Assembly: GCA_900315245.1 (NCBI GenBank)
Contig: OMYJ01000007.1
Location: forward strand, 93,256-157,255
Direction of reading: 5' to 3'
Source: an uncultured Bacteroidales bacterium
GTDB lineage: Bacteria > Bacteroidota > Bacteroidia > Bacteroidales > WCHB1-69
DNA: 64,000 nt
The position numbers and the translations under genes are program-made. Shown here one piece after another: positions 8,988-60,335 of the stretch (its first letter is position 1; each line of letters begins with the position of its first letter). The notes beneath the pieces are model-generated. The model made no database searches, had not been told where the DNA came from, and saw only the letters and a list, made by a program, of their open reading frames with translations.

Positions 8988-9004
8988 AGTCTGATTCGTT
9001 TTAT

Positions 9005-9079
9005 ACCCCCCTGCCCTTCGGGCATCCCCCCTAAAGGGTTTTACCCCCCTGCCCTTCGGGCATCCCCCCTAAAGGGGGG
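9005..9079 (+). repeat. Two tandem copies of a GC-rich double-hairpin element
   Basis: ACCCCCTGCCCTTCGGGCATCCCCCCTAAAGGG(GGG) twice, with stems TGCCC/GGGCA and CCCCCC/GGGGGG. A third copy is at ~9907..9944. Confidence 0.85.
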
Positions 9080-9099: not shown

Positions 9100-9160
9100 A
9101 TTCTACATTATTAATTCTTAATTCATAATTCATCATTCATCATTCATCATTCATAATTGG
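9100..9160 (+). repeat. CATTCAT/AATTCAT heptamer array (nqrE-nqrF spacer)
   Basis: ...TTAATTCTTAATTCATAATTCATCATTCATCATTCATCATTCATAATTGG. Confidence 0.8.
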
Positions 9161-9162
9161 AA

Positions 9163-9765
9163 TTACATTCCCAGGAACGCCATAAACCCCATGCCTAACA
9201 GTCCGGTGATGATGTAGGCGATGCCGTTGCCTTGCAGTTTGGGCGGGATTTTCGCGTATTTGAGGCGCTCGCGGATGGCGGCGAAGGCGGTGATGGCTAA
9301 TAGCCAGCCGATGCCGGAACCGAGCGCGTAGGCCAGACTGTGCGCCACGGTGGGGAAGTTGCGCTCCTGCATGAAGAGCGAGCCGCCGAGGATGGCGCAG
9401 TTCACGGCAATCAGCGGCAGGAAGATGCCTAACGTCATGTACAGCGCCGGAAGATACCGCTCGAAGACCATCTCCAACAACTGCACGATGCCCGCGATCA
9501 CCGCGATGAAGATGATCAGCGACAGGAACGAGAGATCCGTGCCGGCAAAGCTCGCGCTCAGCCACGTCAACGCCCCTTCGCGGAGCAGGTATTTGTCGAT
9601 CAGGTAGTTGACGGGCACGGTAACCGTCAGCACGAAGCAGACGGCCAGTCCCAACCCGAAAGCAGTCTTCACGTTCTTGGAAACGGCCAGATAGGAGCAC
9701 ATGCCCAGGAAGTAGGCGAAGACCATGTTGTCGATGAAGACGGAGCGGAGGAAGATTTCTATCAT
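9163..9765 (-). CDS. nqrE: Na+-translocating NADH:quinone oxidoreductase subunit E
   Basis: 200-aa polytopic protein, FIDNMVFAYFLGMCSYLAVS, typical NqrE/RnfA family. Confidence 0.95.
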   Translation of the reverse strand: MIEIFLRSVFIDNMVFAYFLGMCSYLAVSKNVKTAFGLGLAVCFVLTVTVPVNYLIDKYLLREGALTWLSASFAGTDLSFLSLIIFIAVIAGIVQLLEMVFERYLPALYMTLGIFLPLIAVNCAILGGSLFMQERNFPTVAHSLAYALGSGIGWLLAITAFAAIRERLKYAKIPPKLQGNGIAYIITGLLGMGFMAFLGM

Positions 9766-9802
9766 AATGGTTATAGGTTATGGGTTATTGGTTATTGAAG
9801 CC
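9766..9802 (+). repeat. Leader 40-mer variant abutting the nqrE start codon
   Basis: AATGGTTATAGGTTATGGGTTATTGGTTATTGAAGCC differs at 2 positions from the copies at 32..71 and 59474..59513. Confidence 0.85.
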
Positions 9803-9838
9803 CTACACTGCGGCTTCGCTGCGCCTATGTGGGCTAGT

Positions 9839-9908
9839 GCCCCACACTGCGCTTCGCTTATGTGGGGTTATTAGCGCTTCGCGCGTCTTGCCCCTTCGGG
9901 GCTGCTTA
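9839..9908 (+). repeat. ~70-bp direct repeat, left copy, flanking the methyltransferase gene
   Basis: GCCCCACACTGCGCTTCGCTTATGTGGGGTTATTAGCGCTTCGCGCGTCTTGCCCCTTCGGGGCTGCTTA. A further degenerate half-copy lies at 9801..9838. Confidence 0.8.
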
Positions 9909-9960
9909 CCCCCCTGCCCTTCGGGCATCCCCCCTAAAGGGGGGAATTGGGGATTTTCGC

Positions 9961-10030
9961 ATCTTCATTCAACATTCATAATTCAGCATTCATAATTCAG
10001 CATTCATAATTCATAATTCTTAATTCTTAA
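9961..10030 (+). repeat. CATTCA(T/G)-type heptamer array
   Basis: ATTCAACATTCATAATTCAGCATTCATAATTCAGCATTCATAATTCATAATTCTTAATTCTTAA. Confidence 0.8.
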
Positions 10031-11030
10031 TGGAGTTTCGTTCCCAGAAGACGCCGTCGGCGTATCCTTGTATTGTGGGATTCGTGTCGGCGAGGAGGAG
10101 GCGTTTGGCGGTCCAGAGGCAGTATTCGCGGTTGAGTTCGACGCAGCAGAAGCGACGGTTGAGCTTCTTGGCAACGACGGCGGCGGTGCCGCTGCCGGAG
10201 AAGGGGTCGAGGATGCGGTCGTCGGGGTTGGAGGAGGCGAGGATGAGTTTGGCGTAGAGTTTCTCGGGCTTCTGCGTGGGGTGGTCGGTGTTCTCGGGCA
10301 TCGACCAGAAGGGCACGCTAATGTCGTCCCAGAAGTTGGAAGGGTGGGTGAGTCGGAATTTGCCCTCGGCGGTGTCGTCCCAGTCTTTGGGCTTCCCGTT
10401 CACTCGATATGGGGCTATCACCTTGCGTTTCATCATGACGGCATCCAGGTTGAAGGTGTGGTGTTTCGGGTCTTTCACGGCGAACCAGATGTCCTCCATG
10501 CTGTTCTTCCAGTTGGATTTCGCCCCGCGGCCCTTCTCGCGTTGCCAGGTGATGCGGTTGAGGATGGTAAGTCGCTCTTCGATAACCCGTTGCATGGAGG
10601 AGGAACATTTCCAGTCGCCGCACATGTAGAGCGTGCCAGTCGGTTTCAGCTTGTCGCACACCTTGCCGAACCAGCTGCGCAGGAATTCCTCGTATTCGTC
10701 TGATTTCATAGACGAGAACTTCCGTCCGTTGAAGTCTTTGTCGAGGTTGTAGGGCGGGTCGAGGAGGATGAGGTCGAAGTGTTTGTCGGGGATGAGGTCG
10801 AGGCATTCGAGCAGGTCGCCGTTGACGAGCATGTTGTCGCGGAAGCCCGAGCGCAGGTCGTCCGGCGTGCTGACGATCGGTTCCAGCGCGGGGACTTCCC
10901 CGGCGGTGACCGTCAGCGTCTGATTACGCGGGGCACGTCCCCCACACTGTGGCTCCGCCTTGTGTGGGGTTAATTTTGCTTCGCGCGTCTTGCCCCTCCG
11001 GGGCTGCTCAAGGAATGAATTCGTTGTCAT
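10020..11030 (-). CDS. Orphan beta-class N6-adenine/N4-cytosine DNA methyltransferase (N6_N4_Mtase family)
   Basis: Motif IV LLDPPYNL precedes motif I DPFSGSGTAAV. The track start 11075 is a TTG inside the -7 box, so the first plausible ATG is 11030 (alternative 10832). The first ~35 codons are encoded by a repeat element. No adjacent endonuclease is recognisable. Confidence 0.85.
   Translation of the reverse strand: MTTNSFLEQPRRGKTREAKLTPHKAEPQCGGRAPRNQTLTVTAGEVPALEPIVSTPDDLRSGFRDNMLVNGDLLECLDLIPDKHFDLILLDPPYNLDKDFNGRKFSSMKSDEYEEFLRSWFGKVCDKLKPTGTLYMCGDWKCSSSMQRVIEERLTILNRITWQREKGRGAKSNWKNSMEDIWFAVKDPKHHTFNLDAVMMKRKVIAPYRVNGKPKDWDDTAEGKFRLTHPSNFWDDISVPFWSMPENTDHPTQKPEKLYAKLILASSNPDDRILDPFSGSGTAAVVAKKLNRRFCCVELNREYCLWTAKRLLLADTNPTIQGYADGVFWERNSIKN
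10939..11010 (+). repeat. ~70-bp direct repeat, right copy (inside the 5' end of the methyltransferase ORF)
   Basis: CCCCCACACTGTGGCTCCGCCTTGTGTGGGGTTAATTTTGCTTCGCGCGTCTTGCCCCTCCGGGGCTGCTCA, in the same orientation as 9839..9908. Confidence 0.8.
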
Positions 11031-11064
11031 TTGCTGCCTCTTTCTCTCATGCTTTTCGAAGCCG

Positions 11065-11072
11065 CAAAGGTA
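11065..11072 (-). promoter_or_regulatory. -7 box (TACCTTTG) for the methyltransferase, possibly also feeding nqrEF
   Basis: Extended CCGCAAAGGTACA context, 35 nt upstream of ATG 11030. Confidence 0.55.
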
Positions 11073-11146
11073 CAATTTTTTGGTGTTCGTGCATAATCAT
11101 CAGAAACAACAATCGCATTTCACCTGCGCACTATCGGATTTTTTTG

Positions 11147-11154
11147 TACTTTTG
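11147..11154 (+). promoter_or_regulatory. -7 box (TACTTTTG) reading into the plus-strand island genes
   Basis: TAnnTTTG match divergent from the methyltransferase promoter. Confidence 0.45.
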
Positions 11155-11430
11155 CACCTGTAAAAATGGATAAGAACCAAACTTTATTGAATATTAGAAG
11201 AGAGAAATAGACATTTATAATTTTTTGATATAAAGCGTTTTTGCTTTTCAAGTAATCGGAAATCTGGACAATTTCCACTGTGTTACAGAAGAAGGCAGAA
11301 ATGCTCACGGTGTATCCGTGGGCTTTCTCGTTTGTAACACAGGCAGTCCAGAGCCTCCGATTAGACAGAAAGACTCACGGATTCTTTTTTGTGACAGCTC
11401 GAAAGGCGAAGCGCCCCAAACGCCAAGCCT

Positions 11431-11634
11431 ATGAGCACCAAGTTTTTCAACAATATCGAGACGAGGCTGATGGACAAATTCCACGGCATCGCCTCCGCCA
11501 TGGCCAACTTCGACATCTTCCATGCCGTGGTTGGCTATTTTCGTTCCAGCGGCTACTTCAAACTGCGCAAGGAGCTGGAGAAGGTCAGCGAAATCCGCAT
11601 CCTCGTCGGCATCAATATCGACACAATATTCTGA
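11431..11634 (+). pseudogene. N-terminal 67-codon fragment of a PLD-like-domain / SNF2-type restriction-like helicase gene
   Basis: MSTKFFNNIETRLMDKF...FDIFHAVVGYFRSSGYFKLRKELEKVSEIRILVGINID matches, from memory, the N-terminus of large PLD-helicase(-methylase) proteins. The ORF stops exactly where GC-rich sequence switches to AT-rich sequence. Confidence 0.55.
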
Positions 11635-11669
11635 AAATAATAAATACACGATTGCTTTTTAAGAAGTAG

Positions 11670-14027
11670 TTGAAACTTGCGACTATTTTTTTAGTTTTGC
11701 AAAGTCATATTCAAAAGAATTGTTTTTACAAAATATCAATAGTTGTGGAAAATTATAAACATGCTTGGCAATATGCTTTAAGAAATCAATTAAAGCACTT
11801 GCGGTCCGAAGGTGAGATATCTGAAAGAGAGTGCCTGTCTTTAATAGATGATATAATATCTTGTGATTCTGAAGCGGAATTTTATCGTCGTCATGACATG
11901 GATAACATTTTGAGTGGCGATATCATTCCTGACTTTGTCACAACTGATGATATTATCACAGATGACCTAACTATTGAAGACGAAGCACGTAAAATTGTAT
12001 TAGAGAAAAATATACAACTTATTGATGGCGTTTATTATTGTTTGAAAGAAAAAAAAGTAATCGCTATTAAGGGCGATGTAACACATTGTCATATACGAGA
12101 AGGAATTAAAGAAATCACTTACTATGCTTTTAGAAACTACTCCGAATTTGATATTCGAGATATTCTTGAGGATTATTCTGTCTTCAGTCACAATGCTTTA
12201 CTGGATATCATATTGCCTGATAGTTTAAAAAAGATAGATGACCTCGTCTTTTATAATACTAGTTTACGTAATGTTAAATTACCTGATGGTTTAGAAATGT
12301 TGGGAGAAAAAACTTTTGCTGCTAATGATTCTTTAGAAACAATTGTTTTACCAACCAAACTGCGCACAATAGGGAAAGGATGCTTTTCTAATTGTCCAAA
12401 ACTTAAGGAAGTTGAGCTTCCCCAATCGGTAAAAATGATAAAAGATGATTGTTTCAATGGCTGCACTTCTTTAGAAAAGTTTATTTTCCCTCAAACAGTG
12501 AAATCCATTGGTAAGTGCGTTTTCGAAAAATGTGTCTCTTTAAAAGAAATTGAGCTTCCTCATTCTTTGGAAACTATAGGACAAGCCGCTTTTACTAAGT
12601 GTACATCCCTACAGTCTATTATTATACCTAAAAATGTAAAAAACATTTCCGATAATGTATTTGGATATTGTTCCTCTTTAAAGAAAATTGAGTTTTTAGG
12701 GAGCTTCGACGAATTGAAGGGTGGTTTTTTTCGCAGTTGCTATTCATTGAAAGAAGTATTGTTGCCAAATAGTTTAGTAGAAATCGGCAATGCTGCTTTT
12801 AGCTCATGTATATCCTTAAAGGGCATAAAGATTCCTGACACAGTAGAATTAATAGGCTGTAACACTTTTAGAGATTGTATTTTGTTGGAGGAGTTCAGAT
12901 TTCCGAATAATCTTCAAGTTATTTTATCGCAAGCTTTTAAGGGATGCAAGAGCCTACGAGTAGTATATGCAAACAACAATATTGTAAAGATTTTTCCTAA
13001 CGCCTTTGATGATTGTAGTTCATTACAAGCCATTGTTGTTCCACCAGGATCGCTAAAACGAATGCAAAGTATCTTCCCGAAACGTGTTGCTGAAAAACTA
13101 GTAGAAATAGACCAGTTTCGGCCAGAAACTATTGTTGCTGTGCAACTTTATAAGAAAGATTATGTAATTAACAATATCAATCGTTCTTTTTTGAATAGTT
13201 TTCCGTGGAAGTATATTAATACCAACAATGTTACTCTCTTGCATCCCAATTACGTAGTTGGGCCTTGTCCAAAGCACCTTATTTATGAACGGGAAGATTT
13301 ATTGTCTCTTGAAACAAAGTACCAAGATTATTATTATAAGATTCAAAATGATTTTATACGAGGAACATTTTACAATCTCGATGACGAAATGTATAAGACG
13401 TATGCTTTCATACTATTTTTCGACTTAATTGCATCATACAGAGACAATAAAGATTTGAGTAAATTGCTTAATCAATTAGAAATTGTGCGTATTTCCTGTC
13501 CTATAATAGGGGATTATGTCCCAGAAAAGCTAATGACAATAATAGATTATAAACAATTGACTGGCACCTCTAAATTAATGATTCTTAAGGCTTTTCCGGG
13601 TTTTCGAGGCATGATGTCCATAAAGGACTATGCCCTGTTGGTGTTAAATTATTCTGATTCTCAAATAATCAAATTGAAAATACTGGAAGACGTTCAGATT
13701 TGTGAAATACAATTGTTGAAGTCTTATGAGAAAAGATACAAAGTGACACAAGGAGAGATTATAAAAGAAACGATAGATCTTGTGCTGCAAGTCGCCGGAA
13801 AATATGATGATTTTTCAAAGGCAGCGTTGTTGGCAGCAAAAAGGCAAAAAATCACATCTCTAACAGAGATAGGTTCGAGATTTTTGCGCAGATGCTTTCA
13901 GGAAGTGCTTCGTAATCATAATCCAAATATTATTTATGGTGATGGGATAGGATATGGAGATTGTGGAATTGAGAAAATTGATGAATACCTAAAGGAAATC
14001 ATGGAATCGAACACGCCGATTCACTGA
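11670..14027 (+). CDS. Signal-peptide-less BspA-type leucine-rich-repeat (LRR_5) protein with an unknown ~320-aa C-terminal domain
   Basis: About 11 repeats of the form LP.SL..IG..AF..C.SL..I.IP. The start is uncertain: TTG 11670 or the first in-frame ATG at 11898. AT-rich. No signal peptide or TM is visible. Confidence 0.75.
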   Translation: MKLATIFLVLQSHIQKNCFYKISIVVENYKHAWQYALRNQLKHLRSEGEISERECLSLIDDIISCDSEAEFYRRHDMDNILSGDIIPDFVTTDDIITDDLTIEDEARKIVLEKNIQLIDGVYYCLKEKKVIAIKGDVTHCHIREGIKEITYYAFRNYSEFDIRDILEDYSVFSHNALLDIILPDSLKKIDDLVFYNTSLRNVKLPDGLEMLGEKTFAANDSLETIVLPTKLRTIGKGCFSNCPKLKEVELPQSVKMIKDDCFNGCTSLEKFIFPQTVKSIGKCVFEKCVSLKEIELPHSLETIGQAAFTKCTSLQSIIIPKNVKNISDNVFGYCSSLKKIEFLGSFDELKGGFFRSCYSLKEVLLPNSLVEIGNAAFSSCISLKGIKIPDTVELIGCNTFRDCILLEEFRFPNNLQVILSQAFKGCKSLRVVYANNNIVKIFPNAFDDCSSLQAIVVPPGSLKRMQSIFPKRVAEKLVEIDQFRPETIVAVQLYKKDYVINNINRSFLNSFPWKYINTNNVTLLHPNYVVGPCPKHLIYEREDLLSLETKYQDYYYKIQNDFIRGTFYNLDDEMYKTYAFILFFDLIASYRDNKDLSKLLNQLEIVRISCPIIGDYVPEKLMTIIDYKQLTGTSKLMILKAFPGFRGMMSIKDYALLVLNYSDSQIIKLKILEDVQICEIQLLKSYEKRYKVTQGEIIKETIDLVLQVAGKYDDFSKAALLAAKRQKITSLTEIGSRFLRRCFQEVLRNHNPNIIYGDGIGYGDCGIEKIDEYLKEIMESNTPIH

Positions 14028-14072
14028 GCATACTGATTAAAAATAGGCGTGATGCTCTTTCTTTCTTTTATT
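14026..14072 (+). terminator. Candidate terminator after the LRR gene
   Basis: GAGCATAC...GTGATGCTC imperfect stem followed by TTTCTTTCTTTTATT. Confidence 0.4.
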
Positions 14073-14247
14073 AGTTGAAGCTTGGAGTTGCATATTCCGG
14101 CGATACCCGTTGGAGTTTTTGAGTTTGCGGAAAATTAGTCAAATATCTTATGAAAAAGAAAAACGATAACAAATACCGAAAATCAATACAATCAATATGT
14201 GATTGAGGTAATATCATAATCTCAAACACAATGGGGATTTACTACAG

Positions 14248-14469
14248 TTGGATAAGGTTCAATTTCTTACAGTCCCGTTATACTGTCCTTCTACTAAGCA
14301 ACAAACACTCGTTGTCGCTTTGGTTGACAAAATCATTGATGCTAAGAAGTCCAATCCTTCGGCTGATACCTCCGCGTTGGAGCGTGAGATTGACGAGTTG
14401 GTGTACGAGTTGTATCAATTGTCACCTGAAGAGATTGCCACAACAGAGGGTTATTGTACACAGAATTAA
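14248..14469 (+). pseudogene. C-terminal fragment of a type IIG / Eco57I-like restriction-modification methyltransferase
   Basis: ...LVVALVDKIIDAKKSNPSADTSALEREIDELVYELYQLSPEEI is the characteristic C-terminal tail of gamma-class RM/BREX-type methylases (from memory). No upstream catalytic region is present. Confidence 0.55.
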
Positions 14470-14548
14470 AATAATAGTGTAAATCGCTGTGTGATTTCTT
14501 GTTCAAAAGGTCTATTCACCTGTAATTTACTGCAATTTGGTTGATAAG

Positions 14549-14594
14549 AAATAGCATTTTTTTCTGACAATTCACGAATTAAATGCTATTTTTG
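14549..14594 (+). promoter_or_regulatory. -7 box (TATTTTTG, 14587..14594) embedded in an 11-bp inverted repeat
   Basis: AAATAGCATTT (14549..14559) and AAATGCTATTT (14581..14591) are perfect reverse complements. The right arm overlaps the -7 box. Confidence 0.5.
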
Positions 14595-14631
14595 TGAAAT
14601 AATCAACCTAACGAAAGGAGGTATAAAAGAA

Positions 14632-14757
14632 ATGGCAAAAAAAGTACCATCAAGAAGAGTCGCATCTCTTGCAGCTCGTGCGTTAAGAAATCGCAAATCA
14701 AGCAGAGCCTTAAAAAGTTTGGCGGGAAGTGTGCTTTCACAGCGAGAAAAGAGATAA
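14632..14757 (+). CDS. 41-aa Arg/Lys-rich micro-ORF (MAKKVPSRRVASLAARALRNRKSSRALKSLAGSVLSQREKR)
   Basis: Not in the track because it is <60 aa. ATG is preceded by AAAGGAGG at -18..-11 and by a TAnnTTTG box at 14587..14594. Coding status is unproven. Confidence 0.3.
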   Translation: MAKKVPSRRVASLAARALRNRKSSRALKSLAGSVLSQREKR

Positions 14758-14801
14758 AGCAATAAAAATGTTTATAATTCTAACAATTAAATCTAAGTAA
14801 C

Positions 14802-15224
14802 ATGGATAGTAGCAAATTAAAAGATCTTATCGTGACTTTGCTCATAGAAGAGTCATCAAAAGTTGGGAACAGATTCACGTTTGATGCCTGCGCAACACCG
14901 ATAAAAGAATCAACGTCTGATGATGTTGAGCGCGTACTGCATTCGTTGGCGCAAGATGGATTCATCAATTGTGATGATTTATTAGAAAACAACTACTTTA
15001 TAACATTAAACCAGTCAATTTTTGATTTGAAAGAGCGCGGCGGGTTTTCAATGCAACTTGAAATCCTAAAGTTGAGATTTGAGAAACTACAAATAGAGGT
15101 TGAAAAACTTGAGAAAGAAGACTTCGAAAAAAGCTCCATGAAAGTTTCCGCGTTTCGTGACATTACGGGAATATTGAGCTCTCTTATCAATATCGTTTCT
15201 GCCATTGCAGATTCTTACAAATAA
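14802..15224 (+). CDS. Hypothetical protein (possible wHTH-like N-terminus, coiled coil, hydrophobic C-terminal helix)
   Basis: AT-rich ORF with a 12-nt gap to the next ORF. LEILKLRFEKLQIEVEKLEKEDFEK coiled coil. C-terminal ITGILSSLINIVSAIA. No family recognised. Confidence 0.55.
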   Translation: MDSSKLKDLIVTLLIEESSKVGNRFTFDACATPIKESTSDDVERVLHSLAQDGFINCDDLLENNYFITLNQSIFDLKERGGFSMQLEILKLRFEKLQIEVEKLEKEDFEKSSMKVSAFRDITGILSSLINIVSAIADSYK

Positions 15225-15236
15225 AATAATCATACA

Positions 15237-16073
15237 ATGAAGACATTTCAAGATAATAACAAAAATGAATGCCCTAAACCAGGAATTCGTCAGAGGTGTT
15301 TTCGACACTCGATTTTTAAAACGCTATCTGATATTAAGGACTTTTATGAAAGTTTGTCTGGGAATGATGATACATCTACTATTCTCGCAATTAAGGGTGA
15401 AATCAACGTTAACTGGAGCATTCTTGAATCTCTTTCTAATACTATTGACTCCATAATAACATTGTTGGAAAGAGGTCATGTGAATGACTCGCTTGCCTTA
15501 ATGAGAAAATACAGCGATGCTGTCTTTTTGCATGTTTACATGCTTGTGCTAATAGAACAAGGAGAACAAAACTTTTTCGAAAAAGAATATGCAGATATCT
15601 ATGACAATGTCCTTAACCAATGGGTTAGAGGGGAAAGTTGTTTGATTGAGAAAAAGGACAAAGATGAGAAAACAGACGCTTATTTAGCAGAAATACGAAA
15701 ACGAGACGCTATATTAACCAAGCTGTTGTTTACAAAAGGCAATAAAACATTGTATGGAGAAGGTAGGGCTTCTTTTAACGACAACATTCATTACAACAAC
15801 TTGAAATCGTTTCGGTGGAACAATAATGCCTTTTTGGATTATGAAACATGTTTAACTGTACTGAATCAAGCAGAAAAAGCAATCAAACTTATTTTGAGCA
15901 TTCATTTCGCTTACATAACTCTATTGCGCCCAATGGCTTTGAAATCAGAAGAGGTTGGATCTTGTGCGGCCAATCCTTTCGCAGACGAAATTTTCAAGAA
16001 GTATATTGTTCCTGAATACTGCGAGTTAGCCAGTTACTTGAGACATTGTTCTTTTTTAACATTCGAAGAGTGA
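15237..16073 (+). CDS. Hypothetical all-alpha protein
   Basis: 278-aa AT-rich ORF tightly linked to 14802..15224. No family recognised. A loose resemblance to AbiV/HEPN-like helical proteins is only a guess. Confidence 0.55.
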   Translation: MKTFQDNNKNECPKPGIRQRCFRHSIFKTLSDIKDFYESLSGNDDTSTILAIKGEINVNWSILESLSNTIDSIITLLERGHVNDSLALMRKYSDAVFLHVYMLVLIEQGEQNFFEKEYADIYDNVLNQWVRGESCLIEKKDKDEKTDAYLAEIRKRDAILTKLLFTKGNKTLYGEGRASFNDNIHYNNLKSFRWNNNAFLDYETCLTVLNQAEKAIKLILSIHFAYITLLRPMALKSEEVGSCAANPFADEIFKKYIVPEYCELASYLRHCSFLTFEE

Positions 16074-16118
16074 CCGACTATAACTATCTTCGTGTCTATT
16101 CTATAAAATCAAACTATT

Positions 16119-16424
16119 ATGAACCAAAACGACCCGCGCATCACCGAATATCAAAACGACTTACAGCGCTATCAATCTTGGGGAAATTTATTCCTCGGTT
16201 TCTCTTTTGGTAGCTTCTTCTCCCCAAACGTGCCGTGCGATTCGCTAACCCTTCACAACGGCTTAGAGTATCTCAAAGCCAAAATGAAACTAAACGCCTT
16301 TAACAGCCAACATCATTCGGACGAGGAAATCGAGCACCGTTTGCGACAAATCGATACGGACATCCGCCATGTGGAGGAGGCCCTGCGGAACGACCTCTCC
16401 TTCCGAGGCCTGCTCCGTCCGTAA
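16119..16424 (+). CDS. Small hypothetical protein whose 3' half belongs to the island composite repeat
   Basis: 101 aa. Hydrophobic WGNLFLGFSFGSFFSP. The C-terminus HRLRQIDTDIRHVEEALRNDLSFRGLLRP recurs at 19500..19609, and a paralogous tail recurs at 16800..16887. Confidence 0.45.
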   Translation: MNQNDPRITEYQNDLQRYQSWGNLFLGFSFGSFFSPNVPCDSLTLHNGLEYLKAKMKLNAFNSQHHSDEEIEHRLRQIDTDIRHVEEALRNDLSFRGLLRP

Positions 16425-16887
16425 CCGCCGTCACGCGCCTCCCTGCCTACACCGGCGTCAACCGCCACGCCTCCGGCATCCGCATCGAGCTGATGGACAG
16501 CATGGTGCCGGTGGAAGCACTGGTGTGCGGGGTGAATCATCCCCGTCAGGGGATGCCTGTCTGTAGCGGATGCCCATGCGCGGGTTCAAATCCCCGGAGG
16601 GGATTCATGTTCAGCGGGTTGCCGAAACATTGTTGTGCCCGATGTGCAACCCCTCACGGGGTTGTGGGGGCTGCCGCATCGCCAACGGCTACAGACAGGG
16701 AACCCCTAACGGGGTTCGGGGGTGCGGTCGGGAACGTCCTCGCGCTACAGATATGGAAGCCCTGACGGGCTTTGGAAGGATACGGAAACGAGCCCATCAC
16801 CGCCTTGCCGAAATCGACGACGACATTCGCAAGGCCGAGGAGGTTTTCCGCTACGACCTCTCCTTCCTCAGGCGGTTGGAAACATGA
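16281..16887 (+). repeat. Island composite repeat copy A (alpha + beta units)
   Basis: Alpha ~16281..16623 aligns with 19469..19813. Beta ~16624..16887 aligns with 20980..21200. It is made of short perfect hairpins such as ATCCCC-GTCA-GGGGAT. Confidence 0.85.
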
Positions 16888-17047
16888 ATGCCCTAGTTCC
16901 ATATAATATAATAAGAACGCCCTGTTGCCACTATCGCACGTCGGGAATCCCATCCAAGTGGAAAATGCATTCCGTTAACAATGCGAATAGCAGATTTCAA
17001 AAATAATTCCAATCATCCAATATTTATTGCATAGAACAAAAAAAATG

Positions 17048-17055
17048 TATTTTTG
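17048..17055 (+). promoter_or_regulatory. -7 box (TATTTTTG) for the DUF4062/AlbA_2 pair
   Basis: TAnnTTTG match 80 nt upstream of ATG 17135. A GCAAGC/GCTTGC hairpin lies in the leader. Confidence 0.55.
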
Positions 17056-17134
17056 CAATTGCAAGCCGAGTTCGTTTACTCAGCTTGCATGAACTAATTT
17101 GGTGTAGTCATTGAATGTTTATTGAATCGGTGTG

Positions 17135-17794
17135 ATGGTAGAAAAGGACAAATTTACGGTGATGGTGAGTTCATCAGTGAACGGATTTGAAGATCAATTG
17201 CTTCGCATTGAGGCACAATTCATCACGTTGGAATATGATGTAATAATGTCAATGTCGGGTTCAATGAAGGTTGACCCAAGACTGCACAACTTTGACAATT
17301 GCTTAAAAGCCGTTGAAGAGTGTGATCTGTTTTTTGGAATTATCAGACCTGATTGCGGTACAGGCAGAGACGGAAGTGAAAGTATTACCTTTCAAGAATT
17401 TAAACATGCTCGGGAATGTCATAAACCTTGTTGGTATGTGATTGATAATCGAATTAAAACATACAAGAATTTGCTGAAATCTTTAGTTCTGCGTGAACAT
17501 CCAGACACAAAAGATGAAGATTTGAACAAAGCCATCACATCTTTCTATGATAACACTATAAGACAAAGGAGGAAACTTCCAAGAGTGTTGGATCTTTTTG
17601 AGACCAAAGACTTACATCAGTTTGATCCTTTATGTTTTGTTATGGAAGATTTTGTGAACCACAAAGGTTTACCTAAAGAAGAAATCACCAATAATTGGAT
17701 GCACTATTATGACCATGAATTGGATATCGCAAAATATATCCGTACAAATTTTGGGGACAAGGTATTCATTGCTAATGTATTAAAAGAATTTTGA
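17135..17794 (+). CDS. DUF4062-like (TIR / nucleoside deoxyribosyltransferase-like fold) protein
   Basis: FTVMVSSSVNGFEDQL...CLKAVEECDLFFGIIRPDCGTG...ITFQEFKHARECHKPCWYVI follows the DUF4062 pattern (vFiSS...DL..eR...cD.fv.i.G.rYG...S.te.Ey..A...kp...f). GTG 17132 / ATG 17135. TAnnTTTG box at 17048..17055. Confidence 0.6.
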   Translation: MVEKDKFTVMVSSSVNGFEDQLLRIEAQFITLEYDVIMSMSGSMKVDPRLHNFDNCLKAVEECDLFFGIIRPDCGTGRDGSESITFQEFKHARECHKPCWYVIDNRIKTYKNLLKSLVLREHPDTKDEDLNKAITSFYDNTIRQRRKLPRVLDLFETKDLHQFDPLCFVMEDFVNHKGLPKEEITNNWMHYYDHELDIAKYIRTNFGDKVFIANVLKEF

Positions 17795-17796
17795 TT

Positions 17797-19356
17797 ATGA
17801 GCGACAATTCGTATATAGTGGATTTTTTACTCAAAGATAGGCAAAATGTGGTGCCTATTCCAACAGCAGACCCCGTAGAGATTGCTAAAAATGCTTGTGC
17901 TTTGGCCAACACACAAGGAGGTACTATGCTCATTGGGGTCAATAATCTTGGCGAACTTGTAGGTGTTGGCCTAAAAGAAGCCACGGACATCATAAACAAA
18001 TGCCTTATCAACAATGTACACCCAACACTTCCTTTTACTATTGGCCATTCTGAAAAAGAGGGCAAAAACATTGCAATAGTTTCTGTTTGGGAAGGCCCGA
18101 ACAAGCCCTATGTTGCAAACGGTGCCTTTTACATACGAAAAGAGGATACTACTGTTGCTGCCTCATCTGACGAAATGATTGGCCTTTTTGAAGAAAAATA
18201 TTCATTAGATGAAGGATGGGAACGGAGAACGCAAGTTTCTGCTTCTATTGATGATTTAGACAGTGTTGCCATATCAAAAATTCGAAACGTATTACTACGG
18301 AAAGATGGAAAGTATGCGACAGCTTCAGAAGTGGAAATTATGCGAACTATGGGATTTGTAAAAGACCAATCCTTCACAAATGCTGGTGTTGTGGTAATGT
18401 CAAAACAGCCTTCCATATTTATACCTCAAACAAGAATTAGAGTGTCGGTATTCACAACGGATAATGGTCAAGCATCTTTGGCAGATGTAAGGTTATACGA
18501 TATTAGTCTTATATCCGCTGTTGACGAAGTGGTCGCCTATCTTTACAATCTATATCCTAAGCGTGTTGTTATCGAAGGAATGTTACGCTCTGATGTCGAG
18601 TCATTGCCGTTGTTGGCCTTACGAGAAGGAATATTAAACGCCGTAGTTCATCGTTCGTATGAAAGCCATCAGTCTTTTGTTGCCATTAATGCATATAGCG
18701 ATTATCTGGAAATTGTTAATAGTGGGAATCTTATGGATGGTGTCACCTTGGATGGATTAAAGAGCGTTCATCGTTCTGTTTTACGTAATCCGGATATTGC
18801 AAATGCTTTTTACCAATTAAGATATATCGAAATGGTGGGAAGTGGTACTTTAAGGATTATTGAATCCTGCAGACAAAACAGATGCGAAGAACCAGTATGG
18901 ACATTGGCGAACAATTGCGTGATTCTGACTTTTCCAAATGTCCATCACAATTTACAACCATTGAAAGAAAAGAAATCTGTTGATGTTTCCAATCTGACGA
19001 CAGACAATTCGGTCAAAGTTTCATTAACTGCTATTATGGATTATTTAGCTACTCATGATCACGTTAAATTAAATGAGTTGACAGAACTGACAGGAAAGAG
19101 CTACCCTTCAGTGAAAAGATACATGCGAATTCTGAAAGACGCATCATTAATTGAATATCTTGGTAATTTGCGTTCTGGCGGCTGGGCATTATCTAATAGT
19201 GTCAGCACCTCGCGTCATAGCAGACCGCTTGATGATCCCAATGATAGTCCTAATGATGATCTTAATGGTGATCCCAATGACGATCCTAATGATGATCCCA
19301 ATAGTGATCCCAATGGTGATTCCAATGGTGTTCCTAATGGTGATCCTAATATATAG
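17797..19356 (+). CDS. Schlafen-type AlbA_2 domain + HATPase_c_4 + wHTH protein (RecG-like putative regulator family) with a low-complexity Asp-Pro-Asn tail
   Basis: N-terminal IAKNACALANTQGGTMLIGVNNLGELVGV (AlbA_2). LREGILNAVVHRSY...MVGSGTLRIIESC (HATPase_c_4). wHTH LNELTELTGKSYPSVKRYMRILKD. Start is either ATG 17797, 2 nt after the upstream stop, or TTG 17791 overlapping it. Confidence 0.8.
   Translation: MSDNSYIVDFLLKDRQNVVPIPTADPVEIAKNACALANTQGGTMLIGVNNLGELVGVGLKEATDIINKCLINNVHPTLPFTIGHSEKEGKNIAIVSVWEGPNKPYVANGAFYIRKEDTTVAASSDEMIGLFEEKYSLDEGWERRTQVSASIDDLDSVAISKIRNVLLRKDGKYATASEVEIMRTMGFVKDQSFTNAGVVVMSKQPSIFIPQTRIRVSVFTTDNGQASLADVRLYDISLISAVDEVVAYLYNLYPKRVVIEGMLRSDVESLPLLALREGILNAVVHRSYESHQSFVAINAYSDYLEIVNSGNLMDGVTLDGLKSVHRSVLRNPDIANAFYQLRYIEMVGSGTLRIIESCRQNRCEEPVWTLANNCVILTFPNVHHNLQPLKEKKSVDVSNLTTDNSVKVSLTAIMDYLATHDHVKLNELTELTGKSYPSVKRYMRILKDASLIEYLGNLRSGGWALSNSVSTSRHSRPLDDPNDSPNDDLNGDPNDDPNDDPNSDPNGDSNGVPNGDPNI
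19231..19353 (+). repeat. 12-nt tandem repeat (~10 units) encoding the (D/N/S)-(D/G)-P-N tail
   Basis: GATGATCCCAAT GATAGTCCTAAT GATGATCTTAAT GGTGATCCCAAT ... Confidence 0.85.
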
Positions 19357-19381
19357 CATTTGATGATTGAGGAAAAAGTGA

Positions 19382-19612
19382 CATTGGCATCTCATTTCTC
19401 AGCTACTTTTCTTCCGATCTCCCAGCGGTTCCATAATTCGCAACAACAGTTTGGAATTCTGCAAATCCCAAAAGAAGCTAAACGCCCTCACCGATGCCCG
19501 TCACTCTGACGAGGAAACCGCTCACCGTTTGCGGCAAATCGACACGGACATCCGCCATGTGGAGGACGTCCTCTGTCACGACCTCTCCTTCCGAGGCCTG
19601 CTCCGTCCGTAA
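19382..19612 (+). pseudogene. Start-less degenerate copy of the 16119..16424 ORF
   Basis: The in-frame translation ...KKLNALTDARHSDEETAHRLRQIDTDIRHVEDVLCHDLSFRGLLRP* parallels the C-terminal half of the 101-aa ORF. There is no ATG, and a TGA lies immediately upstream. Confidence 0.45.
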
Positions 19613-19813
19613 CCGCCGTCACGCACCTCCCTATCCCACACCGCCCCCAACCGCCACGCCTCCGGCACCCGCATCGGGCTGATGGACAGCACGGTGTCGG
19701 TGGAGGCGATGGTGGGCGGGGTGCCCCCATCCCCGTTAGGGGATGCCTATCTGTAGCGGATGCCCACGCGCGGGTTCAAATCCCCGGAGGGGATTCATAT
19801 TCAACGGGTTGCA
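19469..19813 (+). repeat. Island composite repeat copy B (alpha unit only)
   Basis: Near-identical by eye to 16281..16623, with scattered substitutions. Confidence 0.85.
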
Positions 19814-19917
19814 AGGTGAAAATTGTCGTGAAATTATGTTCGTGCAATAAATGCGCCCCGTCCTCGTTAATCTCTGAAATAAAACGGAATATTAAACAAA
19901 CAGTAAAAGAAAACAGA

Positions 19918-20658
19918 ATGGAAATAGGAAATTTCGGATACTACTGGTTGGACACCTGGGTGATGTCCAACGTGATACAACTCGCCACGCAGGATTTCTG
20001 CAGGCGCTATCTAAACCGTTCCAACGATCCGTGTGGCCGCCAATACGACCAGATGACGCAAGCGGCACGGTCGGTACCGGCCAACATCGCGGAGGGAAAC
20101 TCGCGACACGACACCTCTAAGGAGACCGAGATGCGGCTCACAGATGTGGCCCGCGCGAGCCTCGCAGAACTGGCCAACGACTACCTGAACTGGCTCCTCC
20201 AGCACGAAGAGCTCCCATGGTCGGTGAAATCGGACATCTACTGCAAGGTGTCAAACACCCACCTCGACAAGCCCTTATACAAGGACGATGTGCAATATCT
20301 AAGCAGCCAACATATTCTGGTCCAAAAGCACAAATTCGATGAGTGGCTGGAGGCAAAGAACTCGATTATGGCAGCCAACTGCTTGTTAGTCCTCTGCAAT
20401 CGTTTGATCATGATGCTGAGGAAACAACTGGCTAACCAACTGGAAACTTTCCGGGCCGAAGGCGGTTTCACAGAAGCCCTGACCGCCGAAAGACTCGCTT
20501 ACCGAGCCGAACAAAGCGCGAACTCCAACGCCCCTGTCTGCCCGAAATGCGGCAAACCGATGATAAAGCGGATGGCAAAGAAAGGCATAAATTCGGGAAA
20601 GGAGTTCTGGAGCTGTTCCGGATACCCGGCGTGCAGAGGGACCAGAAACGTAGAGTAA
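19918..20658 (+). CDS. Four-helix-bundle (23S rRNA IVS / Avd-like) domain fused to a topoisomerase-type C4 zinc finger
   Basis: From ATG 19918: WVMSNVIQLATQDFCRRY...SVPANIAEGNSRHDTSKETEMRLTDVARASLAEL (TIGR02436-like). C-terminal CPKCGKPMIKR...FWSCSGYPACRGT (zf-C4_Topoisom-like). Confidence 0.75.
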   Translation: MEIGNFGYYWLDTWVMSNVIQLATQDFCRRYLNRSNDPCGRQYDQMTQAARSVPANIAEGNSRHDTSKETEMRLTDVARASLAELANDYLNWLLQHEELPWSVKSDIYCKVSNTHLDKPLYKDDVQYLSSQHILVQKHKFDEWLEAKNSIMAANCLLVLCNRLIMMLRKQLANQLETFRAEGGFTEALTAERLAYRAEQSANSNAPVCPKCGKPMIKRMAKKGINSGKEFWSCSGYPACRGTRNVE

Positions 20659-20676
20659 GGGTAATGTCGATGTGTC

Positions 20677-20703
20677 ACGTTATCACGTGATAACGTTTAT
20701 CTT
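20677..20703 (+). terminator. Perfect 20-nt palindrome after the 4HB-zinc-finger gene (terminator or operator)
   Basis: ACGTTATCACGTGATAACGT followed by TTTATCTT. A third ACGTGATAACGT half-site lies at 20704..20715. Confidence 0.45.
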
Positions 20704-20732
20704 ACGTGATAACGTAATCTTCAAATTGACAT

Positions 20733-21275
20733 CTCCGTCACGACCTCTCCTCCCGTCGCCTGCTCCGTCCGTGACCCCCTGTCCCGCACCTCCCTTGTCC
20801 CTCACCGCCTCCACCCGCCACGCTTCCGGCACCCGCATCGGGCTGATGGACAGCACGGTGCCGATCGAGGCGCTGGCGAGCGGGGTGGCTCATCCCCGTT
20901 AGGGGATGCCTATCTGTAGAAACGGATGCCCATGCGCGGGTTCAAATCCCCGGAGGGGATTCATTTTCAACGGATTGCCAAAACATTGTCGTGACCGATG
21001 TGCAACCCCTCACGGGGTTGTGGGGGCTGCCGCATCGCCAACGGCTACAGAGAGGGAACCCCTAATGGGGTTCGGGGGGCGCGGCCGGGAACGTCCTCGC
21101 GCTACAGATATGGAAGCCCTGACGGGCTTTGGAAGGATACGGAAACGAGCCCATCACCGATTTGCCGAAATCGACGACGACATCCGCAAGGCCGAAGCCC
21201 CTCCGTCACGACCTCTCCTTCCGTGGCCTGCTCCGTCCGTGACCGCCGTCATGCATCTCCCTTGTCCTACACCGC
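20733..21275 (+). repeat. Island composite repeat copy C (5'-truncated alpha + beta + a second partial alpha abutting nqrD)
   Basis: 20733..20979 aligns with the distal part of alpha. 20980..21200 aligns with beta. 21200..21275 repeats the start of the alpha core and overlaps the nqrD stop codon. Confidence 0.8.
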
Positions 21276-21857
21276 CCTCGGTCCTTTCGCCCAAATAATC
21301 ACCCCAATCAAGATCAGCGCCATGGGCGGCAAAATCATCAGCCCGTTGTTGAGGTAGCCGGCGGCGTACCAGCTGTCGGGGACGACCTGGTGGTTCCACA
21401 ACGTGCCGGAGCCGAGCAATTCGCGGAAGAAGGCCACCACGACGAGCACCAGCCCGTAGCCGAGACCGTTCATCACGCCGTCCATGAACGACGGGAACGG
21501 TTTGTGTGACAGCGCGAAGGCCTCCAACCGGCCCATGATGATGCAGTTGGTGATGATGAGTCCCACGAAGACCGACAGCATCTTGCTCACATCATAGAGA
21601 TACGACTGCAGCAACAGATCCACGAGGATAACGAAGAAGGAGACCACCAGCAGCTGCACGATGATGCGGATGCGTGGCGGTATCGTGTTGCGCATCAAAG
21701 AGATGATGAAGTTGGAGCAGGCACAGACCACCGTCACGGAGAGCGCCATGACCACGGCGGGCTTGAGTTGCGCGGTCACTGCCAACGCAGAGCAGACGCC
21801 CAACGTCTGCACTAAAATCGGGTTGTCTTTGCTGAGAGGTCCGAGGTACTTTTTCAT
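21267..21857 (-). CDS. nqrD: Na+-translocating NADH:quinone oxidoreductase subunit D
   Basis: NPILVQTLGVCSALAVT, polytopic, 196 aa. The last codons and the stop lie inside an island repeat. Confidence 0.95.
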   Translation of the reverse strand: MKKYLGPLSKDNPILVQTLGVCSALAVTAQLKPAVVMALSVTVVCACSNFIISLMRNTIPPRIRIIVQLLVVSFFVILVDLLLQSYLYDVSKMLSVFVGLIITNCIIMGRLEAFALSHKPFPSFMDGVMNGLGYGLVLVVVAFFRELLGSGTLWNHQVVPDSWYAAGYLNNGLMILPPMALILIGVIIWAKGPRAV

Positions 21858-22476: not shown

Positions 22477-22478
22477 TT

Positions 22479-22648
22479 AGTGATTGGTGATTAGTGATTG
22501 GTGATTAGTGATTGGTGATTAGTGATTAGTGATTGGTGATTAGTGATTAGTGATTGGTGATTAGTGATTGGTGATTAGTGAATAGTGATTAGTGATCGGA
22601 GCCAAAAGTCTCAAGTCTCAAGTCATAAGTCCAACGTCTTACGTCTCC
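22479..22648 (+). repeat. GTGATTA/GTGATTG heptamer array (~16 units) plus an AGTCTCA array in the nqrB-nqrC spacer
   Basis: ~115 nt are C-free on the plus strand. The AGTCTCA/CGTCTTA units run into the nqrB stop region. Confidence 0.9.
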
Positions 22649-25029: not shown

Positions 25030-25047
25030 CGTTTCGTTTTGAAACTG

Positions 25048-25055
25048 CAAAGGTA
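25048..25055 (-). promoter_or_regulatory. -7 box (TACCTTTG) for nqrA
   Basis: Extended TGCAAAGGTACA context, 19 nt upstream of ATG 25029. Confidence 0.6.
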
Positions 25056-25066
25056 CAATTTTTTGG

Positions 25067-25115
25067 GATTAGTGATTAGTGAATAGTGAATAGTGAATGG
25101 TGATTTGTGATTGAA
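25067..25115 (+). repeat. GTGATTA/GTGAATA heptamer array upstream of nqrA
   Basis: GATTAGTGATTAGTGAATAGTGAATAGTGAATGGTGATTTGTGATTG. Confidence 0.8.
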
Positions 25116-27004: not shown

Positions 27005-27163
27005 TAATTATGAATGTTGAATGATGAATGATGAATGATGAATGCTGAATGCTGAATGTAGAATGAAGAATAGTAGTTGATAGTTATTAGTCTAAGTCTA
27101 AGTTTAAGTCATTATTAGTTAAAAGCTAATAGCCAACAGCCAAAGGCCAACAGCCAACAGCCG
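27005..27163 (+). repeat. Spacer composed almost entirely of several short tandem-repeat families
   Basis: TGAATGA/TGAATGC x8. AGTCTA hexamers x4. AGCCAAC/GGCCAAC heptamers x4. Confidence 0.9.
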
Positions 27164-49931: not shown

Positions 49932-49960
49932 TGTTTTTTTGACAAAGGATAAATAGTAAT

Positions 49961-50000
49961 GCCTACTCTTTTTCGGATTTTCGGCGGACTCCGTGATAGC
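49961..50000 (+). repeat. Conserved intercistronic motif, copy 2
   Basis: GCCTACTCTTTTTCGGATTTTCGGCGGACTCCGTGATAGC. Confidence 0.8.
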
Positions 50001-50876: not shown

Positions 50877-50899
50877 AATAATATTGTTTTTGTTGTTTT

Positions 50900-50935
50900 G
50901 CCTACTCTTTTCCGGATTTTCGGCTTACTCTGGTT
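50900..50935 (+). repeat. Conserved intercistronic motif, copy 3
   Basis: GCCTACTCTTTTCCGGATTTTCGGCTTACTCTGGTT. Confidence 0.8.
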
Positions 50936-59473: not shown

Positions 59474-59577
59474 AATGGTTATTGGTTATGGGTTATTGGT
59501 TATTGAAGCTGGTTTATAGTTTGTAGTGAGTAGTGAATAGTGAGTAGTGAGTGGTGAATAGTGAATAGTGATTGGAA
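59474..59577 (+). repeat. Leader 40-mer plus GTGAGTA/GTGAATA heptamer array
   Basis: A 40-mer identical to 32..71 directly abuts the ATG of 57983..59473. Confidence 0.9.
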
Positions 59578-59580: not shown

Positions 59581-59608
59581 GTAGAGACGCAAAATTTTGC
59601 GTCTCTAC
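59581..59608 (-). terminator. Perfect 28-nt palindrome after 59618..60055
   Basis: GTAGAGACGCAAAATTTTGCGTCTCTAC, followed on the minus strand by ATTTTCC. Confidence 0.6.
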
Positions 59609-60117: not shown

Positions 60118-60120
60118 AGT

Positions 60121-60246
60121 TAGCCTTCGGCTGTTGATTAGCCTTCGGCTGTTGATTAGCCTTCGGCTGTTGATTAGCCTTCGGCTGTTGATTAGCCTTC
60201 GGCTGTTGATTAGCCTTCGGCTGTTGGATAGCCTTCGGCTGTTGAT
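60121..60246 (+). repeat. 18-nt tandem repeat x7 (TAGCCTTCGGCTGTTGAT)
   Basis: Seven head-to-tail units, six identical and one with a single substitution. Each contains the mini-hairpin AGCC-TTC-GGCT. Confidence 0.95.
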
Positions 60247-60261
60247 TACTTCGTGTTGGGC

Positions 60262-60333: not shown

Positions 60334-60335
60334 TG

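Follow-up and report, generated by a model that had tools for sequence, protein, structure and literature searches.

Defense hotspots and islands in core genomes lie between conserved genes; examples are the core defense hotspots (cdHS) of Pseudomonas aeruginosa and the integration hotspots of Escherichia coli. In Neisseria, strains exchange the small gene cassettes of minimal mobile elements (MME) by homologous recombination via conserved flanks or repeats, and arrays of Neisseria intergenic mosaic elements with dRS3 repeats (NIME/dRS3) serve as substrates for recombination. Here, we describe a locus that resembles both in part. It lies in 64,000 nt of DNA (the window; contig OMYJ01000007.1, positions 93,256 to 157,255) from an uncultured rumen Bacteroidales bacterium, between nqrD and a unit that encodes a DNA methyltransferase (MTase), nqrE, and nqrF. 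Two cassettes, namely a DUF4062 plus AlbA_2 gene pair and a gene for a four-helix-bundle protein with a zinc ribbon (4HB-Zn), alternate with composite repeats of about 0.5 kb that are built from orphaned gene tails and hairpins that resemble repetitive extragenic palindromic (REP) sequences. We think, with moderate confidence, that these tails and hairpins act as portable homology, through which homologous and illegitimate recombination reshape a defense hotspot.

Structure of the repeats

The copies of the repeat were detected by comparing copy A (16237-16890) to the window with BLASTN. Copy A matched 20740-21222 within copy C (88.7% identity over 485 nt) and 19443-19812, which is copy B (85.3% over 373 nt). 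A terminal fragment, which overlaps the stop codon of nqrD (21267-21269), matched at 21155-21274. One more two-hairpin module, of 75 nt, was found at 60263-60337. The three copies (Table 1) have a mutual identity of 85-89% and contain 12 perfect GC-rich hairpins. They also have perfect runs of 36-74 nt in common, which suffice for recombination of the RecA type. Block T holds the tail of a small gene, orf101, block S holds the tail of a gene that we term X, and blocks H12 and H345 hold hairpins.

A first-pass annotation of this DNA, made from the sequence without database searches, had described three composite repeats that bracket the two cassettes. BLASTN confirms that the copies are real and that they bracket these cassettes. 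The start of copy B needs correction, as it lies about 26 nt earlier than had been given, at 19443, and the module at 60263-60337 and the overlap of the last copy with the nqrD stop codon have to be added to the description. The same annotation had the repeat begin within the open reading frame (ORF) at 16119-16424, and it does; the gene 3' ends within the repeats come from two different genes. Two further points hold as well: copy B keeps the frame of orf101, as an N-terminally truncated fragment, and the unit closes with a paralogous tail. The cassettes also differ in GC content as described (0.38 for the first and 0.50 for the second, while the repeats have 0.60-0.64).

We considered two other identities for the repeats. 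A string like GGTTCAAATCC near the second hairpin hinted at a T-arm and hence at a tRNA-derived att site, but ARAGORN found no tRNA or tmRNA in the window. Known structured RNAs were ruled out by Rfam, which gave nothing in 16100-21400 except a chance match of a miRNA model to the palindrome after the 4HB-Zn gene.

Origin of the gene tails

Homologues of orf101 number 34, with identities as low as 50% across all 101 amino acids. The N-terminal half of the protein is variable and its C-terminal half is conserved, and the gene closes different defense operons in different strains. Besides the intact copy (16119-16424), there are orphan orf101 tails in the window at 16791-16887, 19443-19612, 20740-20795, and 21148-21262. 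The tail in copy B represents another allele than the intact upstream gene.

Gene X encodes a restriction-type protein (GIY-YIG/ResIII) of about 850 amino acids; it is intact in other strains and absent from this one. X runs through S in frame in L038, L129, L132, L137, and L141 (L-numbers are our labels for comparison contigs or loci), and the S block of the window shares 90.8% identity with the end of the intact X (3' side) in L141. The tail that S encodes (ASLAYTGVNRHASDTRIGLMDSTVPIEA...) is kept in 120 of 120 homologues of X, so S is native coding sequence of X. The same conservation rules out that S is an add-on element that gave X a new C-terminus. The orphan fragments contain indels and have no start codons. 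In orphan copies of S, the polymorphic sites are spread evenly across codon positions (22/17/20 in 48 orphan copies, versus 4/1/6 in 7 copies within intact X), so these copies are decaying relics that evolve neutrally. In L038 and L141, the arrays are headed by intact X.

The X relic has no fixed 5' limit, which lies between −45 (upstream) and +20 (downstream) relative to its commonest point. This rules out a single 5' boundary beside unrelated neighbors, which would imply a specific site. S is a rare sequence, with 29 stretches in the metagenome collection. The viral contigs of IMG/VR gave no match to either the S or the REP pattern, and we therefore rejected a phage or satellite attP.

Variation between strains

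In contigs whose encoded NqrD or 4HB-Zn protein is identical, we found at least seven layouts next to nqrD. Layout 1 is that of the window. The others are HNH_5 and 4HB-Zn (layout 2); orf101 and a 354/413-aa gene (layout 3); 4HB-Zn and AAA_14/DUF4143 (layout 4); MTase, 4HB-Zn, and Abi_2 (layout 5); a cys operon, DUF4062-AlbA_2, and 4HB-Zn (layout 6); and orf101 and AbiEii-AbiEi (layout 7). Each main layout recurs across several independent assemblies and sources (ENA, metagenome-assembled genomes [MAGs] at NCBI, JGI, and Logan). So, the content of this cassette array does differ among close relatives, as had been proposed. The interval from nqrD to the left flank is hypervariable, from 2.6 kb in L019 (4HB-Zn and Abi_2) up to more than 15 kb, and in some strains it also includes a sulfate-transport/cys operon.

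Exactly one unit distinguishes L119 and L131 from the window, with a T1/T2 crossover within a shared core of 15 nt. Also, the unit copies are mosaic: across H12 (and, in L018, on to T2), the copies of L018 and L011 show 100% identity to copy A of the window, but their S and T blocks show only 85-89%.

The C-terminal residues of NqrD vary with the adjoining junction (21267-21290 in the window and homologous loci). AKGPRAV is found in 17 loci, and the other forms are AKGPKAV, AKGPREV, AKNGATER, and AKNGVAEKR. Therefore, the recombination zone extends into the 3' end of nqrD. Two loci have odd right flanks. In L016 (12883-16851), a Peptidase_C10 gene follows nqrD in place of nqrC, and in L017 (5956-9485), a Peptidase_M1 gene follows 4HB-Zn, without nqrD. 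These flanks reflect either repeat-mediated rearrangement or chimeric assembly.

Cassette junctions

We mapped all cassette junctions on unit coordinates. The left ends of cassettes are at T124, T2-100, S25/66/74/81/86/90, H12-86, and H345-22/98/117/168, and the right ends are at T1/33/79/83/110/148/156 and S2/5/11/13/16/20/74/78/83. There are thus junctions at more than 10 unit coordinates on each side. Any given cassette has the same boundaries in every layout (those of the DUF4062/AlbA_2 cassette are the same in L018, L082, L090, L119, and L131), which fits one founding event per cassette followed by re-assortment.

Four cassettes are flanked by duplications that are in register: 4HB-Zn (T110-H12, about 235 nt), AAA_14 (S20-81, 62 nt), the 413-aa gene (S2-91, about 90 nt), and DUF4062/AlbA_2 (T1-124, about 125 nt). 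These duplications have no segment in common (T1-124 overlaps none of the S-only ones), so there can be no single core for the crossovers. In the case of Abi_2, sequence has been replaced and there is no duplication.

More than 40 neighborhoods, each viewed as ±10 kb around the locus with precomputed Pfam lists, had no integrase, resolvase, or Y1 transposase linked to the array; the exception is one unrelated IS3. There was also no recombinase-like ORF in the ORF lists of the window, where the first-pass annotation had likewise seen none. Finally, the roughly 1 Mb of sequence that we fetched contains no Y1 transposase motif, L084 aside.

A REP-like hairpin family

The hairpins of copy A (h1 to h5, Table 1) are all perfect, as the first-pass annotation had stated, with stems of 6-7 bp and loops of 3-4 nt. 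They have counterparts in copies B and C, and each is predicted to fold at −9 to −14 kcal/mol. Allowing up to 3 mismatches, we found 8 instances of CCCCGTNAGGGGATNCNTNTCTGTAG in the window, with both orientations represented, versus 0 in 100 shuffles. The two-hairpin module carries CCCCGTNAGGGG...CTGTAG, and CTGTAG is invariant, 8 nt 3' of the h1 stem. Because h4 and h5 are inverted copies of the same REP unit as in H12, h1 and h4 form a long stem like that of a REPIN (REP doublet forming a hairpin).

The family is dispersed: a scan for the exact pattern, in which each species was represented by one genome, yielded 77 stretches, and these belong to 25 MAGs of rumen Bacteroidales. The S motif is absent just upstream in 71 of 84 hairpin instances, so the hairpins are mostly solitary. 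Most copies are lone modules of one or two hairpins that adjoin gene ends, and in some contexts the stop codon of X comes from the loop of h1. The stem of h2 has the variants ATCCCC/GGGGAT, ATCTCC/GGAGAT, AACGCC/GGCGTT, and AACCCC/GGGGTT, with compensatory changes from C-G to T-A (6 copies) or G-C (5 copies), from T-A to A-T (8 copies), and from A-T to C-G (9 copies). The covariation that the first-pass annotation had suggested looking for is therefore present, in the second hairpin. That annotation had also named an outcome that would count against it, namely a repeat that is scattered with no association to variable gene content. Half of that outcome is seen: the hairpins are genome-wide and mostly solitary, yet the content of the array varies.

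These hairpins are what is usually understood by REPs, as they are short palindromic stem-loops that are repeated in intergenic DNA and (for the second hairpin) their stem is kept by compensatory substitutions. In a 2013 survey of REPs, the Bacteroidetes had only CGTC-type repeats, and in the GTAG and CGTC families that have been described, the tetranucleotide is adjacent to the stem or 2 nt away (PMC3733652). Given their position between convergent genes and the known roles of REPs, the hairpins most likely function at the RNA level, as insulators, terminators, or 3'-end elements that separate convergent transcription units.

We also looked for a REP-associated tyrosine transposase (RAYT) that adjoins the hairpins. 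The only Y1-like ORF in the fetched sequence is a single weak candidate in L084, which does not reach the Pfam cut-off and has a palindrome of another kind on its flanks. (In L084, at 400-520 and 585-1139, repeats of the form GTAGAGCCGCC...GGCTCTAC precede the RAYT-like ORF, and one is also within it.) In the window, seven copies of an 18-nt tandem repeat, TTAGCCTTCGGCTGTTGA, at 60120-60248 are directly upstream of the solitary doublet at 60263-60337. A second type of palindrome, at 59581-59608, opens with GTAG and closes with CTAC (GTAGAGACGCAA-AATT-TTGCGTCTCTAC).

How the array may be rearranged

We propose that a stack of orphaned modules (T, S, and H12/H345) has been duplicated and re-assorted within the hotspot between nqrD and MTase-nqrEF, without a dedicated recombination site. 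Arriving defense modules would displace the earlier terminal genes and leave their 3' ends behind. The conserved tails, along with the near-identical REP hairpins, could then serve as portable homology, so that homologous recombination (unequal crossover, gene conversion, or the loop-out and re-integration of circles) would add, delete, and swap cassettes. Occasional illegitimate joins, including the founding joins, would supplement homologous recombination, and the hairpins themselves would have their role at the 3' ends of RNAs. We favor homologous recombination over an integron or att mechanism because the junction registers are dispersed, the copies are mosaic, the deletion of one unit is precise, and no recombinase is linked. 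We infer that this recombination is of the RecA type.

The first-pass annotation had instead suggested att duplication by tandem site-specific integration, or an integron-like platform. In such a scheme, circles with S or T as their att site would be inserted at the 3' end of the terminal gene by an enzyme that is encoded elsewhere. This would explain why the duplications around 4HB-Zn, AAA_14, the 413-aa gene, and DUF4062/AlbA_2 are in register, like attL and attR, and why gene 3' ends are found in the repeats, which is also true of elements that restore the gene they target; the variation in content by strain is also expected. We nevertheless consider it unlikely. The many junction registers, and the lack of any segment common to all of the flanking duplications, leave no single crossover core, and Abi_2 replaced sequence with no duplication at all. 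Also, cassettes are found on both strands, at least two of them have their own promoter box, and the copies that flank a cassette are only about 85-88% identical. No integrase was seen in any of the neighborhoods, the hairpins are dispersed, and S is both rare and, like the hairpins, absent from viral contigs. A more elaborate version seems to us quite improbable: an undescribed cassette-capture system of the Bacteroidales could use the T/S/REP unit as its attachment platform, and in this system a HUH/RAYT-like or tyrosine recombinase, encoded in trans, would recognize the REP hairpin beside a gene tail and insert circular defense cassettes with a matching tail, and the heterogeneity of the junctions would reflect later erosion. 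If such a dedicated enzyme were found, then the locus would be an analogue of the integron.

It is also unlikely, though slightly less so, that the repeats are purely passive scars of illegitimate insertions and deletions, with no part in later rearrangement. The neutral evolution of the orphan S copies, the heterogeneous registers of the junctions, and the further gene relics within the island all fit with this idea. However, scars would not account for the precise indel of one unit with its crossover in a shared core, for mosaic blocks of 100% identity between units at different array positions and in different strains, or for cassettes with fixed boundaries that are re-assorted into several layouts. 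Very unlikely, in our judgment, is mobilization that depends on the REPs, in which a HUH/RAYT or IS200/IS605-like enzyme would recognize the hairpins, along with the GTAG close by, in single-stranded form and mobilize the cassettes that they flank. The structure-preserving covariation, the occurrence in both orientations and in REPIN-like pairs, the CTGTAG after h1, the gathering of breakpoints at the edges of the H12 module, and the RAYT-like ORF in a related MAG (L084) would fit with such an enzyme. But that ORF is under the Pfam cut-off and has another flanking palindrome, no other Y1 motif turned up in the fetched sequence, the GTAG is 8 nt off the stem rather than at its end as in the described GTAG REPs, and several junctions are in S or T, far from the hairpins. 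Finally, contigs often end at repeats, and the odd right flanks of L016 and L017 could be taken as signs that the variety of layouts is due to mis-assembly of metagenomes across the repeats. We give this hardly any credence because the main layouts recur, with identical junctions, in independent assemblies and sources.

Several points weigh against our proposal that the tails and hairpins serve as portable homology. Homologous recombination can re-assort adjacencies but cannot make the first junction of each cassette. The in-register duplications (60-235 nt, four cassettes) would be equally expected from the integration of circles via an att-like segment. Breakpoints cluster near the 5' side of h1 (S81-S92) and near H345-22, at the edges of the H12 module. 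Our views covered ±10 kb per locus, so a recombinase could be encoded elsewhere, and the comparison sequences are mostly metagenome assemblies, which may be chimeric at repeats. Also, the probable role of the hairpins in RNA is argued from their position and from the analogy to REPs.

The cassettes

Most of the cassettes that can be annotated are related to defense: Abi_2, AbiE, a type IIG restriction-modification (RM) protein, a KAP NTPase, and a Schlafen/AlbA_2 protein with domains that are associated with prokaryotic Argonautes (pAgo). They are unrelated stand-alone defense genes, rather than alternative C-terminal domains, plus immunity, of one protein. The AAA_14, 413-aa, AbiE, and Ion_trans cassettes are on the strand opposite to 4HB-Zn, DUF4062/AlbA_2, and Abi_2. 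TAnnTTTG boxes precede both cassette 1 and Abi_2, so at least two cassettes have their own promoter box. The box of cassette 1 (17048-17055), which the first-pass annotation had pointed out, is the only TAnnTTTG on the + strand of 16000-21300. The C-terminus of the AlbA_2 protein is a low-complexity tail, rich in (D/N)-P-N, that is encoded by a 12-nt tandem repeat (19230-19350).

An identical 4HB-Zn protein of 246 amino acids is found in at least 6 layouts, and its family includes more than 4100 protein clusters. A perfect 20-nt palindrome (ACGTTATCACGTGATAACGT, 20677-20696) lies 3' of the gene. In Prevotella, homologues of 4HB-Zn are also flanked by short repeats that are rich in ATAACG (L143, 4286-4470 and 5275-5421; L151, downstream of 4741). 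These observations suggest that a conserved operator-like element may move along with this very widespread gene. We considered and rejected the idea that 4HB-Zn mobilizes itself and leaves long target duplications: direct repeats flank the gene in the lineage of the window and in L149, but there are none in L150 or L151, and L143 has only short periodic repeats around the gene. We also considered, and rejected, a diversity-generating retroelement (a four-helix-bundle protein like Avd, with a repeat at the 3' end of the gene). By eye, the differences between copies are not adenine-specific, and there was no reverse transcriptase domain among the scanned proteins of the window or in the precomputed Pfam lists of the neighborhoods.

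Genomic setting and the split nqr operon

Conspecific sequences come from rumen assemblies of sheep, cattle, and yak, and also include the MAG GCA_017525245.1. The nqr operon is normally contiguous (nqrABCDEF). Here it is split, as the interval that contains the array separates nqrABCD from MTase-nqrEF. A 20-nt promoter core, CCAAAAAATTGTACCTTTGC, which contains TAnnTTTG, is identical upstream of nqrA (25037-25074) and of the methyltransferase gene (11054-11091). The identity hints at a promoter, either duplicated or convergent, that could keep nqrEF expressed.

Table 1. Features of the array and its surroundings (window coordinates)
Feature	Coordinates	Strand	Description
MTase-nqrE-nqrF unit	11033-7743	−	conserved left flank; own promoter-like box
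Left-flank details	9163-11091	−	promoter-like box 11054-11091; N6/N4 DNA methyltransferase 10020 to ~11033; nqrE 9163-9765
Left part of island	11100-16118	+	PLD-helicase relic ~11430-11633; LRR_5 gene 11670-14027; type IIG RM relic 14248-14469; two genes without assignment 14802-15224 and 15237-16073, upstream of orf101
orf101	16119-16424	+	small conserved 101-aa gene that ends the upstream defense operon; its 3' half is block T
Copy A	16281-16890	+	blocks T1, S, H12, H345, and T2
Block T1	16281-16444	+	3' part of orf101, including 20 nt past the stop codon; 164 nt
Block S	16436/16445-16536	+	orphan relic, last ~95 nt of gene X (strain without X)
Block H12	16537-16622	+	REP-like doublet: h1 16538-16555, h2 16589-16605, CTGTAG 16561-16566
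Block H345	16623-16790	+	three hairpins: 16647-16664, 16700-16717, 16757-16772
Block T2	16791-16890	+	orphan orf101 tail, from ~aa 72 to DLSF; past the shared core ACGACCTCTCCTTCC it runs into the left end of cassette 1
Cassette 1	16891-19442	+	TAnnTTTG box 17048-17055; DUF4062 gene 17132-17794; AlbA_2/HATPase_c_4 gene 17791-19356; GC 0.38
Copy B	19443-19812	+	orf101 tail 19443/19470-19632; S 19626-19723; H12 19728-19812
Cassette 2	19813-20731	+	four-helix-bundle (23S_rRNA_IVP, 4helix_suffix) plus Zn_ribbon_Top1 gene 19918-20658; palindrome ACGTTATCACGTGATAACGT 20677-20696; GC 0.50
Copy C	20732-21274	+	T tail fragment 20740-20795; S 20789-20887; H12 20890-20978; H345 20981-21147; second T tail 21148-21262; first ~12 nt of S, into nqrD stop codon
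nqrD	21267-21857	−	last gene of nqrABCD; conserved right flank of hotspot
Solitary REP-like doublet	60263-60337	+	adjoins stop codon of gene 60336-61244 (−)

The island to the left of orf101 contains relics of the N-terminus of a PLD/SNF2 helicase (11430-11633) and of the C-terminus of a type IIG RM protein (14248-14469). Their intact counterparts in other strains are an 1100-aa helicase gene and a type IIG gene of 1034-1068 aa. The LRR_5 (BspA-type) gene at 11670-14027 stands where other strains have the intact helicase and type IIG genes.

Other small repeats lie in the surroundings. The methyltransferase gene is flanked by a direct repeat of about 85 nt (9796-9947 and 10925-11010) with the hairpins CCCCACA...TGTGGGG and GCCCCTTCGGGGC. 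On either side of nqrE, at 9063 and 9928, are hairpins of the form TCCCCCC-TAAA-GGGGGGA, and 9004-9076 holds a tandem duplication of a 38-nt unit. Tandem arrays of 7-nt units (TTAGTGA, ATTCATA, AATGATG, and others) are found in many intergenic regions, several of them beside gene starts (sites include 22477-22596, 25067-25112, 9112-9158, 9967-10031, 27006-27071, and 59523-59571), and comparable heptamer runs adjoin REP modules in related MAGs. On the − strand, at 49960-49994 and 50899-50933, two DUF805b RNA motifs (Rfam RF02914) scored above the gathering threshold.

Comparison with known systems

Like integrons and clusters of attC sites that lack an integrase (CALIN), the locus is a row of gene cassettes with structured repeats between them and with content that varies by strain. 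However, the features that define integrons were absent: there was no IntI in the neighborhoods that we viewed, no attC architecture, and no uniform row of promoterless, co-oriented cassettes. The repeats here are composites of gene tails and perfect mini-hairpins, 235-600 nt long, whereas attC sites are imperfect palindromes of 57-141 nt (R''-L''/L'-R'). The attC crossover is at a fixed position, while the junction registers here vary. And integron cassettes are mostly promoterless and co-oriented, unlike the cassettes described above. As for tandem integrative elements, neither a common core in the duplications nor an element-encoded or linked integrase was found in the cassettes or the flanks.

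The hairpins themselves are much like the REPs, bacterial interspersed mosaic elements (BIMEs), and REPINs of Proteobacteria. Both are short GC-rich stem-loops with 6-7 bp stems and 3-4 nt loops; both have many dispersed copies just 3' of genes, sometimes providing the stop codon; and both occur in single, doublet, and clustered forms, in both orientations, with compensatory changes in the stems. They differ in that GTAG is 8 nt past the stem here and at the stem end there (PMC3733652). Also, the host is of a rumen Bacteroidales lineage, and the candidate RAYT (in L084) is weak. Such elements have been little described in this phylum, so an abundant REP-like family in uncultured rumen Bacteroidales is worth documenting in its own right.

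As in the Neisseria systems, arrays of intergenic repeats appear to be the substrates of recombination. The repeat families are unrelated, and, unlike for Neisseria, we know of no natural-transformation uptake signal for this locus.

The similarity to core defense hotspots lies in the fixed flanks (nqrD and MTase-nqrE), the strain-variable defense content, and the lack of mobility genes in the island. Unlike those hotspots, this one is inside what is normally a single operon, which evidently tolerates splitting by a hypervariable island, and it is partitioned by a repeated scaffold. The locus is also a compact set of candidate defense cassettes (DUF4062+AlbA_2, 4HB-Zn, and several unassigned genes). 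If our proposal is correct, then a defense hotspot without mobility genes can turn over fast through the internal homology of gene ends and REP-like hairpins.

The orphan-module arrays of Rhs and contact-dependent inhibition (CDI) systems, downstream of rhs and cdiA genes, have fragments from the conserved part of a gene between variable cassettes, and each array is headed by the full-length gene; older modules are displaced by incoming ones and are reshuffled as the fragments recombine by homology. Here too, a full-length gene is found at the head of arrays and the fragments are non-functional relics. The differences are that the fragments stem from orf101 and X, as the 3' ends of these upstream genes, and that the cassettes are unrelated defense genes instead of alternative C-terminal domains of one protein. 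In a related MAG (L080, 1-5500), orphan RHS C-terminal toxin/immunity cassettes, which form a classic displacement array, have the same REP module in the repeat unit between them. On present evidence, the locus is an instructive but not categorically new case, which joins features of orphan-module arrays to those of core defense hotspots.

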